A stretch of 9,233 nucleotides of DNA from the NCBI RefSeq assembly GCF_003334255.1, contig NZ_QOWU01000090.1, one strand, 5' to 3'. The notes under the pieces are model-generated. The model saw only the letters and a program-made list of their open reading frames with translations, was not told the DNA's origin and did no database searches. This DNA comes from Escherichia coli (GTDB lineage: Bacteria; Pseudomonadota; Gammaproteobacteria; Enterobacterales; Enterobacteriaceae). This document shows, piece by piece, positions 1,522 to 9,023 of this stretch. The stretch's first letter is position 1; the number at the start of each line of letters is the position of its first letter. The position numbers and the translations under genes are program-made.

Positions 1522-2184
1522 ATGTCAATTGAGCATATTTTAATCGGGAAACATCATGGGGGTTCTGATTACTGGAGAACTCCATTTCTTATATTCCGCA
1601 ATTTGCACCGTGAGTTTAGTTTCAGTCTGGATGGTGCTGCAACTGAGCATGACACGCTGTTACCACGATTCACCAATGATATTCACAATCAGTCATGGGA
1701 TGGTGAACGGGTGTTCTGTAACCCACCATACAGCGACACTAAAACATTCCTCCTAAAAGCCGCTGAAGCGGATTTAGCGGTATTCCTGATACCGTACCGA
1801 CCCCACACCACATACTGGCTTAAGCACCTCTTCACAAACCCGCTTTGCCATGAAATCCGTATTCTTCATCGTGCAGTTAAATACCTTCCACCAGCAGGGC
1901 ATAACGGGCTTGCTATTAGGTCACCGTTTGCAAGTGCAATTGTCATCTTTAAAACTGAGCCACGCAGACATGAAATTACGCAGATGATTTGCTGTGCTGA
2001 TACATTGCTACCGTTAACCATCATTAACAGAGGAGGCTTAAGAGGAAGACCCACCATTTACCCACCTGAGACGCTCGACAGCTTCATAAAGCTATACAGG
2101 CAAGGAAAACCCATTAAGTGCATTGCAGATGCTCTCAGAATGCCTCTGAGCACGTCATACAGGATTGCGCAAAGGTTGAGCTAA
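1522..2184 (+). CDS. Phage Dam-type DNA N6-adenine methyltransferase with a C-terminal resolvase-type HTH domain
   Basis: 220-aa ORF. DYWRTP...FSLDGAA...W-x3-VFCNPPYSD follows the phage Dam family layout (PF05869-like), with catalytic NPPY at nt 1720..1731. From GRP (nt 2044) the last ~46 aa read as a Hin/resolvase-type DNA-binding domain (GRPTIY...IKCIADALRMPLSTSYRI). There is no SD before ATG 1522, so the start is uncertain. Confidence 0.8.
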   Translation: MSIEHILIGKHHGGSDYWRTPFLIFRNLHREFSFSLDGAATEHDTLLPRFTNDIHNQSWDGERVFCNPPYSDTKTFLLKAAEADLAVFLIPYRPHTTYWLKHLFTNPLCHEIRILHRAVKYLPPAGHNGLAIRSPFASAIVIFKTEPRRHEITQMICCADTLLPLTIINRGGLRGRPTIYPPETLDSFIKLYRQGKPIKCIADALRMPLSTSYRIAQRLS

Positions 2185-2288
2185 AATTCTCATAAATATG
2201 GCCATTTACAAGACAGGTGATTTAGATATTAAGAAGTATCCCTGTGAACAATAAATGACCAATCAGTAATTATTCTGTGAAATAATTG

Positions 2289-2317
2289 TTGCAATCTATA
2301 ATCACACATGATATAGT
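2289..2317 (+). promoter_or_regulatory. Sigma70 promoter of the replication operon
   Basis: TTGCAA (2289..2294), 17 nt, TATAGT (2312..2317). It gives a leader of about 225 nt before the rep-like ATG at 2551. Confidence 0.55.
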
Positions 2318-2378
2318 TTCATAGTGGGCTGATAAAAAAGTTCATGTCTTGAAGTGGTAACACTTGGGGAGGTGTCAG

Positions 2379-2414
2379 ATGATTGACGTCAACAAGACCT
2401 CTCATTCAGGGTAA
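2379..2414 (+). CDS. Possible 11-codon leader peptide (MIDVNKTSHSG) in the rep leader
   Basis: Strong SD GGGGAGG (2366..2372), 6-nt spacer, ATG 2379, stop TAA 2412..2414. No other support. Confidence 0.25.
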   Translation: MIDVNKTSHSG

Positions 2415-2499
2415 TTACCTCAGCGTTTTAATCATCGTACTGTTTCAGGCATGGACTTCTTTATCAGTCCATCAATCCCCCAGATATTTTAATCACACA

Positions 2500-2530
2500 G
2501 GCTAATCGGTTTTATCCGGTTGGCCTTTTC
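2500..2530 (+). terminator. Attenuator-like intrinsic terminator just upstream of the rep RBS
   Basis: GGCTAATCGG (2500..2509), loop TTTTAT, CCGGTTGGCC (2516..2525): 10 bp including two G.U pairs, then TTTT (2526..2529). It ends 7 nt before the SD GAGG 2537..2540. Confidence 0.45.
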
Positions 2531-2550
2531 ACGTATGAGGTAATTTATGA

Positions 2551-3489
2551 ATGTCTAAATATAACCCAAATCAGTTTTATAAATTTGATGTGCGAATCTC
2601 TCAGCTTTCAGAAGAAATTAACGCAGCAGCAAGATTAATTTATATGGTCATGGTTCATAGCTGTGATTTCTATGAAGAGAAGTACAAAGCATATTCACCA
2701 AGTATTGACCATCTAGCTTATATGGCTGGTGTTTCAAAGAGAACGGCAATCAGAGCTATTGAGACACTTGAGAAACACGGTTTAATTCAGGTGCAAAAGA
2801 ATCAGGGTCGTCAAAGCACTTATCGTGTATTCACACTGGATGATAAGCCGGAATTACTTGTAAGACCTACATCACAGGAAGTTGCAGCCTCAGTAAGACA
2901 AAATGACACCACTACCAGTGACAAAATGTCATCAGTACCAGTGACAAAATGTCATGGGGGTAGTGACAAAATGTCACCCGTGTTAGATAAGTTATTAGAT
3001 AAAACATTAGATAATAATATTATAGATAAGAGTAAAGATACTGAACTTGATGTTGGTATCAATGAAGATGATTTTCTTTCTTTGGATGAATTAAATGATT
3101 TTCTCTCTATGAATGAATCTGACCTTGATAGTGAAGCTACTAAAGAGACCTCTAAAACATCTGACTTAGAGGAAGATAAAATCTCTGATGTGAATGAAGT
3201 TAGTGACCAGCAAGATACACCTTGCCGCCTCGAATCAACTGATGATGAATTACCGGATGTTGACCTTGATGATGAAGAAGACCCTGAAGAGGAATTGAAA
3301 CGTGAACAGCGTAAAGCAGAAATTAAAGAAAGATTCAGAAAGGCAAAGCTAAAGAACAGGATTGATGAACTTGATGACTTTGATGATAGTGACGATGATT
3401 TTACTTTTACACCAAAAAAGAAAACTCACACCGAGCCAAAGAAAGAAAAAGTTAAAGTCAGACGTGTTTATGCTGGAGGAATGTTTTAA
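2551..3489 (+). CDS. Replication-initiator-like protein: N-terminal winged-HTH (HTH_36-like) and a long acidic C-terminal half
   Basis: 312-aa ORF. ARLIYMVMVHSCD...YSPSIDHLAYMAGVSKRTAIRAIETLEKHGLIQV...STYRV is the HTH pattern seen in phage/plasmid initiators. Iterons and an AT-rich tract lie inside the gene (2892..3029). SD GAGG lies 10 nt upstream. The gene is translationally coupled to the next ORF. Confidence 0.7.
   Translation: MSKYNPNQFYKFDVRISQLSEEINAAARLIYMVMVHSCDFYEEKYKAYSPSIDHLAYMAGVSKRTAIRAIETLEKHGLIQVQKNQGRQSTYRVFTLDDKPELLVRPTSQEVAASVRQNDTTTSDKMSSVPVTKCHGGSDKMSPVLDKLLDKTLDNNIIDKSKDTELDVGINEDDFLSLDELNDFLSMNESDLDSEATKETSKTSDLEEDKISDVNEVSDQQDTPCRLESTDDELPDVDLDDEEDPEEELKREQRKAEIKERFRKAKLKNRIDELDDFDDSDDDFTFTPKKKTHTEPKKEKVKVRRVYAGGMF
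2892..2976. repeat. Four phased iterons (candidate origin of replication inside the rep gene)
   Basis: AGTGACAAAATGTCA at 2917..2931, 2940..2954 and 2962..2976. Copies 1 and 2 are identical over 20 bp (TACCAGTGACAAAATGTCAT). A degenerate copy AGTAAGACAAAATGACA lies at 2892..2908. Spacing is 23/23/22 bp. Each copy contains the dyad TGACA-AAA-TGTCA. Confidence 0.75.
2983..3029. repeat. AT-rich tract with 12-bp-phased TTAGATAA repeats (candidate DNA-unwinding element)
   Basis: TTAGATAA at 2983..2990, 2995..3002 and 3007..3014, plus ATAGATAA at 3022..3029. It lies immediately 3' of the iterons and is encoded as LDKLLDKTLDNNIIDK. Confidence 0.55.
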
Positions 3490-6956: not shown

Positions 6957-9023
6957 ATGGCACAATTTAAAGTTGATGATTTTCTGATTGAGCTAGGTTT
7001 TAACTCTCAGAGGGTTTTAAAAGGTCTGGAAAAAGCCGAGAAACAAACGATGCAGGTAGCATCACGAATTGAGAAGCGATTGAATAAAGCTTTTAAAGTT
7101 AACCCTACGCCTTTAAATGATTCTCTCAAGGTCATGGAAAGAAATGTCGATAAAACTGTTTCCAAGATTGAGCAGCGTCTTAAAAACACTAAAGCGTTTA
7201 AGATTAAAACGGAAATTGAGGATACTTTAAAGCCACTTAGACAACCGAGACAGCCACGAATTAGCGGAAGCAGAGCAATTACAGCAGCGCATAGCGTGAA
7301 TATGAGCAAGCTTCGTGACTTTAATCCTATGCTTGAGAAGTATTTTAAAAGCCAGTATTACAGCTTAAGCAGTAAATCCAAGACACTTGGAAACGAAGCT
7401 TTTAATCGTGAGTTAGCAAAATTAAATCAATCTCTTCGTGAAACACTTTCTAAGTTTAACAAGACCACCAGCAAAAATAATCACAGTGAAAATGCTTCGA
7501 ATGGTCTGGATGTATTAGCTACGAGTGCAATCAAAGCAGGTACAGCCATTTATAGTTTTCAGACAGCCTTAGAAGCTTACAGGCGGATTATGGAGGTTGG
7601 TCTGAAAAAAGAAGCATCACAACGAGCGGCACAATTCGTTTTAGGTGATGAAGGTGCTAAACGAGCTACAGAATTTGTTAAGAATCTTGCTGATAGTAGT
7701 GGTGTAGACCAGATTGAAACATTAAGCAGTTTTGCTAAGTTTTCCGCTGGTGCTGGTGATATGAATGCAGACCAGAAAGAATCCTTATTTTCTAATGTGA
7801 TTGGTACATCCAGATTAATGGGGCTAAGCACCGATGAAATTAACGGGATTTTAAAAGCTTTCGAGCAGATGGCATCTAAAGGAAAGATTCAGGCTGAAGA
7901 GCTACGCGGTCAATTAGGTGACAGAATGGCAGGTGCTTTTCAGTTATTTGCCAGAAGTCTTGGGATGACTACGGAAGAATTAGACAAGGCTATGAAAGAC
8001 GGTAAGGTTCTTTCTAAAGATGTTCTCCCTAAAGTATCCGCTGAAATGGGAAAGATGATTGATAAAGCGGGAGGATGGGAAAAGATTATTAACTCTACTC
8101 AGACGCAGTTAGGCCGCTTAAGTAATTCATGGAATAATAATTTGGCCTTAATGTTCGATGGTTCACAGGAAGGTTTAACAGACTTTACAAGGTCACTGAC
8201 TAATTTACTTAATTCACTGGGTGGTCAATCTAAAAATCTTGGTGAACATTTTGGCGACTTGATGAAAAGCATGTCAAACGGTATTGATGATTTAACCACG
8301 ATTAGCTACCGAGTGCAGGGATTCTTTGACAGAGTGACCCTTGCTTACAGAGAATTAAATGACACTCAAAAAGCTGTAGCTGATGGTATCGCAAATGGCC
8401 TGTTAAGTGCATTAAAGGGACTTGCTGGTATTGTCGCTGTAAGGTCTGGTATTGGTGCTGTAGGTGGTATCTGGAACTTAATTAGGGCTATTTCCACGCT
8501 TGGGAATGTAGCAAATACAGCAGCAGGAAGAATTAATTCACGTTCTGGTGGTGTTGAAAGTGGAAAAAGTAGGCTATCTGTAGCTGATGCAATTACCAGA
8601 GTAATGATTGTCGGTATGACAACTGATGTGATTAATGCCATTGTCAAACCGTTCTATGAACGTCAGATGAGTAAGTCAGATAATCCGATTGATAAAGTTG
8701 TAAGGTCAAAGGTGGAACCCACAGACCAGGCATTAACTGGTGACATGAACTCTTTAGCCGCTGTTTTATGGGCTATGGTTCATGGCAAATCAAAAGATGT
8801 TCCACAGTTTTCACCTGAAGCATTAAATAATCTAAAAGGTCGAGTGGAAACATTCACACAAGATTTAAAGGTTATCAAGCCGTCAGTAAATATTCAGCCT
8901 CAGACAATCAATATCACAACTCAGACGGTACTTGATGGAAAGGTTATTGATGAAAGAACCACATCGCATATTAATCGTATGCAGGAAGATACCTTGATTA
9001 GCTCAGCTTACCCAGAGGAATAA
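6957..9023 (+). CDS. Phage tail length tape-measure protein
   Basis: 688-aa ORF. The core ...LMGLSTDEINGILKAFEQMASKGKIQAEELRGQLGDRMAGAFQLFARSLGMTTEELDKAMKDGKVLSKDVLPKV... is the conserved tape-measure block (TIGR02675-like). The N-terminal third is K/E-rich and helical. Gly/Ala/Ile-rich hydrophobic segments (GIANGLLSALKGLAGIVAVRSGIGAVGGIW) are typical of the family. SD GAGGTG lies at 6940..6945. Confidence 0.88.
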   Translation: MAQFKVDDFLIELGFNSQRVLKGLEKAEKQTMQVASRIEKRLNKAFKVNPTPLNDSLKVMERNVDKTVSKIEQRLKNTKAFKIKTEIEDTLKPLRQPRQPRISGSRAITAAHSVNMSKLRDFNPMLEKYFKSQYYSLSSKSKTLGNEAFNRELAKLNQSLRETLSKFNKTTSKNNHSENASNGLDVLATSAIKAGTAIYSFQTALEAYRRIMEVGLKKEASQRAAQFVLGDEGAKRATEFVKNLADSSGVDQIETLSSFAKFSAGAGDMNADQKESLFSNVIGTSRLMGLSTDEINGILKAFEQMASKGKIQAEELRGQLGDRMAGAFQLFARSLGMTTEELDKAMKDGKVLSKDVLPKVSAEMGKMIDKAGGWEKIINSTQTQLGRLSNSWNNNLALMFDGSQEGLTDFTRSLTNLLNSLGGQSKNLGEHFGDLMKSMSNGIDDLTTISYRVQGFFDRVTLAYRELNDTQKAVADGIANGLLSALKGLAGIVAVRSGIGAVGGIWNLIRAISTLGNVANTAAGRINSRSGGVESGKSRLSVADAITRVMIVGMTTDVINAIVKPFYERQMSKSDNPIDKVVRSKVEPTDQALTGDMNSLAAVLWAMVHGKSKDVPQFSPEALNNLKGRVETFTQDLKVIKPSVNIQPQTINITTQTVLDGKVIDERTTSHINRMQEDTLISSAYPEE

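Follow-up and report, generated by a model that had tools for sequence, protein, structure and literature searches.

The DNA analysed here, a stretch of 9,233 nucleotides (nt) of the Escherichia coli contig NZ_QOWU01000090.1 that is referred to below as the window, is the left part of a ~12-kb E. coli chromosomal island. The element in question is the 227-nt stretch that precedes rep, a gene on the + strand of this island that encodes a putative replication initiator of 312 amino acids (aa). The name rep is reasonable because the protein has a helix-turn-helix (HTH) domain and matches O-like families of the PHROG database, and because the gene contains internal iterons. The features of the leader and of rep, including open reading frames (ORFs) and the ribosome-binding site (RBS), are the following:

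2289..2317, + strand: sigma-70 promoter (TTGCAA 2289-2294, 17 nt, TATAGT 2312-2317), with an extended -10 TG at 2309-2310
2325..2471, + strand: structured RNA domain, a five-helix rod of 147 nt, from folding and covariation
2325-2336/2460-2471 and 2338-2349/2447-2458, + strand: helix P1 of the rod
2351-2359/2438-2446, + strand: helix P2
2360-2365/2370-2375, + strand: helix P3, with a GGGG loop at 2366-2369
2378-2384/2430-2436 and 2385-2389/2423-2427, + strand: helix P4
2397-2400/2409-2412, + strand: helix P5
2379..2414, + strand: mini-ORF of 11 codons, MIDVNKTSHSG* (GGGGAGG 2366-2372, 6 nt, ATG 2379, TAA 2414)
2403..2422, + strand: apical segment, the candidate anti-RBS, from inverted repeat I7 and duplex prediction
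2472..2498, + strand: A/U-rich linker from the rod to the terminator-like hairpin, which holds a C-run (2477-2481) and, at 2490-2498, the second copy of TAATCACAC
2499..2529, + strand: terminator-like hairpin with a stem of 10-11 bp (2499/2500-2525/2526), a 6-nt loop and UUUU
2531..2553, + strand: rep initiation region, with the Shine-Dalgarno GAGG at 2537-2540, an ATG at 2547 and the rep ATG at 2551-2553
2551..3489, + strand: rep, 312-aa initiator with an N-terminal, lambda-O-like HTH and an acidic C-terminal half

In a consensus scan, no + strand site within 1900-3000 but this promoter reaches 9/12. The promoter predicts a transcription start at 2323-2325, and its hexamers and their 17-nt spacing are retained in 39/39 related leaders, the sequence of the spacer being variable. 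An earlier, sequence-only reading of this DNA had placed the promoter at these positions and taken it to drive a long leader of a replication-initiator gene, and both claims are supported, the promoter being correctly located and a better match than chance would provide. Since the leader leaves no space in which rep could have a promoter of its own, the expression of rep must come from transcripts that read through this leader.

The leader region is matched in 154/5426 complete E. coli genomes, every time on the chromosome, and occurs as three types, known here as A (the type of the window; 105 genomes), B (27 genomes) and B' (21 genomes). The 3' end of rep is found in 149 complete E. coli genomes, which approximates the sum of those with leaders A, B and B', and a metagenome scan added 25 loci, all of them of one of these types. 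Rep itself comes in three N-terminal (DNA-binding) types that share a common mosaic C-terminal half: leader A stands before Rep-1 and Rep-2, leader B before Rep-3 and leader B' before Rep-1. The Shine-Dalgarno goes with the type of the leader and not with that of Rep. Judging from the sequence comparisons, the promoter, leader and RBS are inherited as one cassette, because one leader type can stand before different Rep types and because the matches break off either at the start codon of rep (query position 404, window 2553) or within the Shine-Dalgarno (query position 389, window 2538). On the other side, similarity between the window and a type B' locus (L005) starts only ~10 nt before the -35 hexamer.

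Folding of 2324-2560 yields -79.1 kcal/mol (z -5.84 versus shuffled sequence), and the rod that makes up the first 147 nt of the leader starts exactly at the predicted transcription start. The inner arms of types A and B differ at most positions, yet separate folds of the two give the same P1-P5 architecture. RNAalifold, applied to 20 distinct sequences, reports 9 pairs with changes on both sides. In a sequence alignment, the 21 pairs of P1 are 100% paired, with 5 of them compensatory, and the 9 pairs of P4 and the 4 pairs of P5 are paired in 99.4% and 96.3%, respectively, while sliding the partners leaves only 29-47% of the cells paired. A structure-aware alignment of 39 loci (model R1) gives 92.6% pairing over 55 pairs versus 34-46% when slid, with 12/55 pairs changed on both sides; the rod formed by P1 and P2 accounts for 33 pairs, 95.8% of them paired and 9 with compensatory changes, figures that have to be read knowing that this alignment leans toward model R1 and that the variation comes from two or three lineages plus microvariants, so that the counts are not independent events. 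G.U pairs are frequent in the rod and A.C pairs, which would be G.U on the opposite strand, are almost absent, and the covariance model scores the + strand at 111-175 bits and the - strand at 26-47 bits. This asymmetry and the strand scores together indicate that the structure is that of an RNA transcribed in the direction of rep.

Part of this structure had already been noticed in the sequence-only reading as a 7-bp hairpin (ATGGACT 2451-2457/AGTCCAT 2466-2472). Its coordinates are right, but the sequence belongs more plausibly to the 3' arm of a long-range helix of 25 bp (2325-2349/2447-2471). Searches of Rfam at permissive thresholds (E <=1 for the whole window, E <=10 for leaders of types A and B) returned only sub-threshold noise, e.g., Qrr with 21.8 bits against a gathering threshold of 50, and the P1-P5 rod is most likely a new RNA family, distinct from the fold of the c4 and CI RNAs discussed below. 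Two of its motifs, GGGAGG in the loop and stem of P3 (2366-2372) and CCUCU in P5 (2397-2401), are conserved between leader types.

The mini-ORF that was read from the sequence as a candidate leader peptide with a perfect RBS lies exactly at the positions given for it, but it is not conserved among relatives. In 17 type A loci it has 11 codons in 4 and only 5 codons (MIDVY* or MVGVY*) in 12, and in the remaining one its stop is read through. The ATG is gone in 23/23 loci of types B and B', where GAUGAUU has become GAGUAUU or GGGUAUU, and indels of 1, 2, 4 and 8 nt occur in this stretch. The ATG lies inside helix P4, whose arms GAUGAUU/AAUCAUC in type A are replaced by GAGUAUU/AAUGCUC and GGGUAUU/AAUACUC in type B, with pairs 57/122 and 58/121 changing on both sides between types. 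A small protein or toxin read from ATG 2379 or from TTG 2383 was considered and rejected, because the indels break the frames and the resulting peptides are unrelated. What relatives retain of the leader is thus the promoter, the rod and the position of the terminator-like hairpin, and not the mini-ORF, which, like the local 7-bp hairpin, appears to be a by-product of the larger conserved RNA structure. More generally, an apparent leader peptide preceded by a perfect RBS can be no more than a set of nucleotides that pair within an RNA helix.

The tip of the rod carries the apical segment, which is predicted to be unpaired with a mean probability of 0.86 in the window and of 0.83-0.88 across every type. 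Within it, a repeat search identified 2413-2422 (AAUUACCUCA; AATTACCTCA) as a perfect 10-nt complement of 2536-2545 (UGAGGUAAUU; TGAGGTAATT), which holds the rep Shine-Dalgarno, and CAUUCA in the P5 loop (2403-2408) is complementary to UGAAUG at 2548-2553, which includes the rep AUG. The pairing could be lengthened by GCGU 2423-2426 with ACGU 2531-2534, but these four nucleotides of the tip are predicted to be paired in P4. A match of 10 nt, as in the window, is reached in 3/2000 dinucleotide shuffles of the domain. Duplex energies were compared for the apical segment only, which was defined by structure alone, against 1000 shuffles; energies for the whole domain had proved uninformative, as shuffled RBS regions pair with inaccessible stem sequences. 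The apical segment of the window pairs with its own RBS at -20.7 kcal/mol, a value that 0/1000 shuffles reach, and six type A variants pair with their own RBS at -17.9 to -21.9 kcal/mol (0/1000 shuffles each, z -4.0 to -5.5). Where the Shine-Dalgarno block of a type A variant is shorter, its start-codon block is longer, as in L003 and L044 (UCAUUCAUGG vs UUAUGAAUGA).

Type B has a different Shine-Dalgarno, AAAAGGAAAA, and, in the homologous loop, its 10-nt complement UUUUCCUUUU, a match reached by 28/2000 shuffles. Type B' has an 8-nt match plus UCAUUCA facing UGAAUGA at the start codon (-15.8 kcal/mol, p ~0.02). Apical segments of type A pair poorly, at ~-5 kcal/mol, with the RBS regions of type B. 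Because the registers of A and B differ by one position, column-wise covariation between loop and RBS is impossible to compute, and complementarity at the level of segments, tested with shuffles, was used instead. On these sequence comparisons, the loop-RBS complementarity is strong in type A and only suggestive in type B, for which positional homology is the main argument. A target scan with the apical segment across the whole window ranks the rep RBS region within the top six, and the helices predicted there are continuous over a greater length than those of the gappy alternatives. One of the latter, just inside the tape measure gene (6972-7001, -24.1 kcal/mol), was considered as a second target and judged a chance match, as it is gappy and lies beyond the initiation region. 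The stretch 2347-2376, which contains the GGGGAGG of P3, is also among the best predicted partners (-21.0 kcal/mol); this GGGGAGG could be an internal mimic of the Shine-Dalgarno that competes for the anti-Shine-Dalgarno tip.

Between the rod and rep lie the linker, the terminator-like hairpin and the initiation region. The sequence-only reading had described a stem and U-tract just 5' of the rep Shine-Dalgarno, which are indeed located there: arms GGCTAATCGG (2500-2509) and CCGGTTGGCC (2516-2525), with two G.U pairs, are followed by TTTT and CACG, and the type A hairpin has -17.7 kcal/mol (z -6.5). Hairpins of unrelated sequence, each with a U-rich stretch behind it, occupy the same position in all three types, with -15.6 kcal/mol and a long U-rich UUUCUUUGUUUUAUUUUU behind it in type B and -7.9 kcal/mol in type B', so that the hairpin is kept by position. 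The G-run of P3 has a complement in the C-run of the linker, which reads CCCCC in type A and CUCCCUCU in type B, and the two might conceivably form a pseudoknot. The sequence TAATCACAC is found both in the promoter spacer (2299-2307) and just 5' of the hairpin (2490-2498; direct repeat D8), and types B and B' likewise contain two copies of TAATCAC, the second of them placed differently; the repeated TAATCACAC may be an operator for some protein or may be due to chance. In the initiation region, the rep ATG stands 10 nt from the Shine-Dalgarno, and the ATG at 2547, 6 nt from it, opens an out-of-frame ORF of 3 codons, MNV* (2547-2558), whose stop overlaps rep codons 2-3. The double ATG is retained in type B' (MND*), is associated with a 6-codon ORF in front of Rep-2 and is absent with Rep-3. 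It may represent a tiny coupling ORF or two competing starts.

On balance, these features favour a model in which a sense-strand RNA, either the leader itself or a small RNA (sRNA) derived from it, probably represses the translation of rep through pairing of its apical tip with the RBS. In this model, promoter 2289-2317 would drive a non-coding leader from ~2324, the first 147 nt of which would fold into the rod and expose at its tip the segment complementary to the rep Shine-Dalgarno and start codon, ~120 nt downstream. Most transcripts would stop at the hairpin and give a ~205-nt RNA. Those that read through would carry rep, and in these the apical segment would pair with the RBS and block ribosome binding; as the pairing covers both the Shine-Dalgarno and the AUG, it should repress. 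Pairing might take place in cis, in trans via the short RNA, or in both ways, while the hairpin would restrict how much transcription enters rep and proceeds toward the origin. The replication initiator would in this manner stay off, or under a negative feedback that depends on dosage, and the sense-strand leader would do what a countertranscript does in classical plasmids. Transcription of the region, the ends of the RNA, pairing and repression, the cis or trans mode and derepression are what we infer from the features described above.

Several points weigh against this model. The transcription start, the 3' end and the short isoform are predictions. The type A hairpin is followed by only four U and fails a standard terminator scan. 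In the commonest type A variant, the contiguous pairing at the Shine-Dalgarno amounts to 7-8 pairs, and complementarity between CCUC and GAGG is trivial. The type B duplex is A/U-rich, has only -10 to -10.8 kcal/mol and is not clearly better than either shuffles (p 0.04-0.13) or duplexes with natural 30-mers of the window. The leaders represent two or three lineages in Escherichia and close relatives, and each compensatory change corresponds to one or a few evolutionary events. The strong conservation of GGGAGG in P3 and CCUCU in P5 is not explained by the model, nor are the C-run of the linker and a possible role of RNase III on the 33-bp rod. Finally, two type A copies are found together in five genomes, which gives no hint that copies of the same type exclude each other, although this is weak evidence because integrated copies need not compete.

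The role of RNase III is at the centre of another explanation, in which the rod is only a cis-acting element for processing or stability. RNase III, for which the lambda N leader and the T7 early mRNAs provide precedents of cleavage, could cut the ~33-bp duplex of P1 and P2 and thereby determine how long the rep mRNA lives or where it begins, and the match between tip and RBS would be incidental. Such a duplex is long and conserved (33 pairs with the pairing and the 9 compensatory changes given above), and the weak complementarity between loop and RBS in type B also fits. However, this explanation accounts neither for the type A loop-RBS match, which 0/1000 shuffles attain, nor for the joint change of loop and Shine-Dalgarno between types, and is considered unlikely. 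It is compatible with the model of repression by tip-RBS pairing, as a cut by RNase III could free the tip to act in trans.

The promoter, rod and terminator could also constitute an independent sRNA gene with targets in a helper phage or in the host, rep being expressed only by incidental read-through. The unit has indeed a self-contained look, with its own promoter, a structure that begins at the predicted start, an A/U-rich stretch and a terminator hairpin, and read-through would be needed anyway given the lack of space for a separate rep promoter. This is nevertheless improbable, since the rep RBS ranks in the top six for the apical segment within the window and offers the longer continuous helices, the Shine-Dalgarno is inherited with the leader and not with rep, and the scan within the window identified no alternative target.

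Still somewhat less probable is that the domain binds a ligand or a protein and acts as a riboswitch or a protein-dependent attenuator that steers the terminator or the RBS. A riboswitch would likewise have a structured domain followed by a linker, a terminator and the RBS, and unpaired motifs are common to the types, i.e., GGGAGG in P3, CCUCUYAUUCA in P5 and a CA junction. However, the domain is a simple rod rather than a junction-rich pocket, its loop sequences differ greatly between types A and B, and it matches no Rfam family. Moreover, inspection of the predicted folds, without a dedicated computation, revealed no conserved alternative pairing of an antiterminator with the terminator arms.

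The designs put forward in the sequence-only reading, in which rep is under the control of a countertranscript that acts via leader-peptide coupling (IncFII tap, IncB/IncI repY) or via transcription attenuation (pT181, pIP501), are very unlikely to operate here. A Shine-Dalgarno does precede the 11-codon ORF, a terminator-like hairpin is present, and the stop codon of the ORF (2412-2414) overlaps the first bases of the anti-RBS (2413-2422), so that a translating ribosome could unmask rep. Against coupling, the ORF has 5 codons in 12/17 type A loci and no start codon in 23/23 loci of types B and B', its indels shift the frame, its ATG takes part in the co-variation of P4 base pairs, and its stop at 2414 is 137 nt upstream of the rep ATG at 2551. 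Against a countertranscript of the CopA, Inc RNA, pT181 or pIP501 kind, the structure is specific to the + strand, as the bit scores of the two strands given above indicate, and no conserved antisense promoter is found. The sequence-only reading had itself located no obvious antisense promoter, and the scan agrees: within 2337-2560 the - strand has no promoter-like site of at least 9/12, and weaker matches are not common to types A, B and B'. The sole - strand site of 9/12 lies at 2335-2308 (TTATCA, 16 nt, TATCAT) and is only 8/12 in type B. It overlaps the leader promoter and faces the gene of a Dam-HTH protein, i.e., away from the leader, and would therefore give no RNA antisense to it. The sequence-only reading is thus partly supported, right in spirit in that it saw a regulatory leader of a replication gene and wrong in its specific designs.

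It is hardly credible that the leader is a DNA-level element (a recombination site or a single-strand origin) or that it encodes a small type I toxin of 40 aa from TTG 2383, for although a long imperfect inverted repeat adjoins recombinase genes and the TTG ORF contains a hydrophobic stretch, G.U wobbles are tolerated on one strand only, compensatory changes pass via G.U intermediates and the model scores are strand-specific, on which grounds a DNA-level inverted repeat was rejected, and the TTG frame is broken by indels and gives unrelated peptides of 16-40 aa in relatives.

Among known systems, the proposed mechanism resembles that of the c4 RNA of P1 and P7 and the CI RNA of P4 and phiR73, in which regulator and target share a strand and a transcript, with the regulator upstream, and in which the regulator pairs with complementary sequences farther downstream and needs no antisense promoter; the c4 RNA covers the icd RBS. 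The rep leader likewise lies upstream of, and is complementary to, its putative target, significantly in type A and weakly in type B, and the element that hosts it is, as in those systems, phage-like or satellite-like. Unlike the c4 and CI RNAs (Rfam C4), however, the 147-nt rod has another fold and gives no match to the covariance model even at E <=10, so that the resemblance is functional only, and its predicted 5' end is the transcription start and not a cut by RNase P. A further difference is that the CI RNA, which keeps the replication genes of P4 off (PMC4825925), acts by premature termination, whereas the predicted target here is the initiator's own RBS. In the Gifsy-1 prophage of Salmonella, a promoter drives the sRNA IsrK, which has its own terminator, and it has been shown experimentally that the read-through mRNA is translationally silent because of pairing within its leader and that the short form of IsrK acts in trans on the long form (PMC4825925). 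The architecture of promoter, sRNA, terminator and ORF is compatible with that of the rep leader, the isoforms of which are predicted. In contrast to the repression predicted here, IsrK activates its downstream ORF, which concerns an antirepressor and not an initiator, and there is no match to the Rfam IsrK family.

The plasmid systems offer a different comparison. Like repY-repZ of IncB/IncI-alpha and tap-repA of IncFII, the locus has a long rep leader with long-range pairing that involves the rep RBS region, and IncB uses a pseudoknot between a loop and an RBS-proximal sequence. However, these systems depend on an antisense RNA (Inc or CopA) and on a conserved leader peptide that overlaps the start of rep; in the island the ORF is not conserved and no antisense promoter was found. 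Moreover, the IncB/IncI-alpha pseudoknot activates, whereas the pairing predicted in the rep leader covers the Shine-Dalgarno and AUG and should inhibit. The leader shows neither the coupled leader ORF and antisense promoter of IncFII nor the overlapping leader ORF, activating pseudoknot and antisense promoter expected of IncB/IncI-alpha. With respect to pT181 and pIP501, no conserved antisense promoter is found for a countertranscript that would choose between antiterminator and terminator; a leader hairpin exists in all types, its UUUU failing the terminator scan in type A and its U-rich tail being long in type B.

The initiator module itself is organised like lambda O and ori-lambda, with an N-terminal DNA-binding domain in type-specific variants, iterons in its own gene at the linker and a shared C-terminal part. 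The N-terminus of Rep corresponds to Pfam HTH_36, a winged-HTH domain, and PHROG families of replication-initiation and O-like proteins match this part with E values of 1e-9 to 1e-10, the likeness to lambda O being confined to the N-terminal domain. The iterons AGTGACAAAATGTCA lie within the coding sequence of rep at 2897-2987. They consist of three identical 15-nt repeats with the palindromic core TGACA-N3-TGTCA, plus an extra upstream copy of a longer 23-nt unit, at a spacing of 22-23 bp, and code for the linker that follows the HTH domain (a repeated SDKMS peptide). By analogy with lambda O, this iteron region is likely the origin, and transcription from upstream could perhaps also activate it, as in lambda; the three N-terminal types of Rep should differ in their iterons. 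Unlike the island, lambda lacks a structured leader or terminator of this kind immediately upstream of O, and the lambda oop RNA is antisense to cII.

The island is best seen in locus L002 (13134-24299), where it sits between yciI and tonB; another copy, in L005, adjoins lafU. The L002 copy contains genes for a small serine recombinase/invertase, the Dam-HTH protein (a fusion), rep, several unknown small ORFs, a tape measure protein, a baseplate protein and a large serine recombinase, and no capsid, terminase or repressor gene was recognised in the island, which could be a phage satellite or a decayed prophage. Homologues of Rep come nearly all from E. coli, Shigella, E. fergusonii and Salmonella. 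The window comes from neither a plasmid nor a known phage, and the island is absent from the plasmid, phage and IMG/VR collections that were queried. Queries of plasmid and phage collections with the leader returned zero matches, and those of IMG/VR with Rep, the Rep alignment and the leader motif retrieved only one distant relative of Rep (L001), in which just ~85 nt separate the gene from the upstream ORF. A scan of species-representative genomes with GGAGGNGTCAGANNATTGACG, a pattern that leaves out GTCAGG variants, gave only chance matches (in Bacteroidales, Desulfobacteraceae and others), and a search of the literature found nothing specific on the island or on a comparable leader.

Two aspects of the variation among islands may be added. 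The gene of the small serine recombinase (487-1053) is on the - strand in the window and in L015, L017, L020, L047 and L048, and on the + strand in L002, L003, L004, L014, L018, L019 and L021. Relative to L002, the segment 305-1205 of the window is inverted and diverged, while its flanks (125-304 and 1206-1374) are collinear, and the segment may be either an invertible cassette or a replaced one; a repeat search around it found no long flanking inverted repeats. In one genome (NZ_AP019675.1), two islands (L047 and L048) have near-identical type A leaders in front of Rep-2 and Rep-1, respectively, with A-to-G changes in P4 that turn A-U into G.U pairs, and an IS5 follows one of them.

A bolder version of the model is possible, although doubtful: the terminated ~205-nt leader would be a trans-acting, RNA-only repressor of replication, and the loop/RBS pairs of types A, B and B' would be exchangeable specificities of immunity or incompatibility. 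This would amount to an RNA immunity of the P4 kind that evolved independently, with an unrelated fold, in a previously undescribed family of 12-kb satellite-like islands. In that case, matched loop/RBS pairs that are inherited together with their promoter would represent a simple, reprogrammable specificity code, and they would provide a handle on an uncharacterised island that combines an O-like replication module, a tape measure protein and two serine recombinases.

In all, confirmation of repression by the leader would place a new structured RNA family, present in ~150/5426 complete E. coli genomes, beside the few cases (P1 c4, P4 CI, N15 CA and IsrK) in which a mobile element controls a key gene by an RNA that comes from the leader of that very gene, with neither a protein repressor nor a countertranscript.

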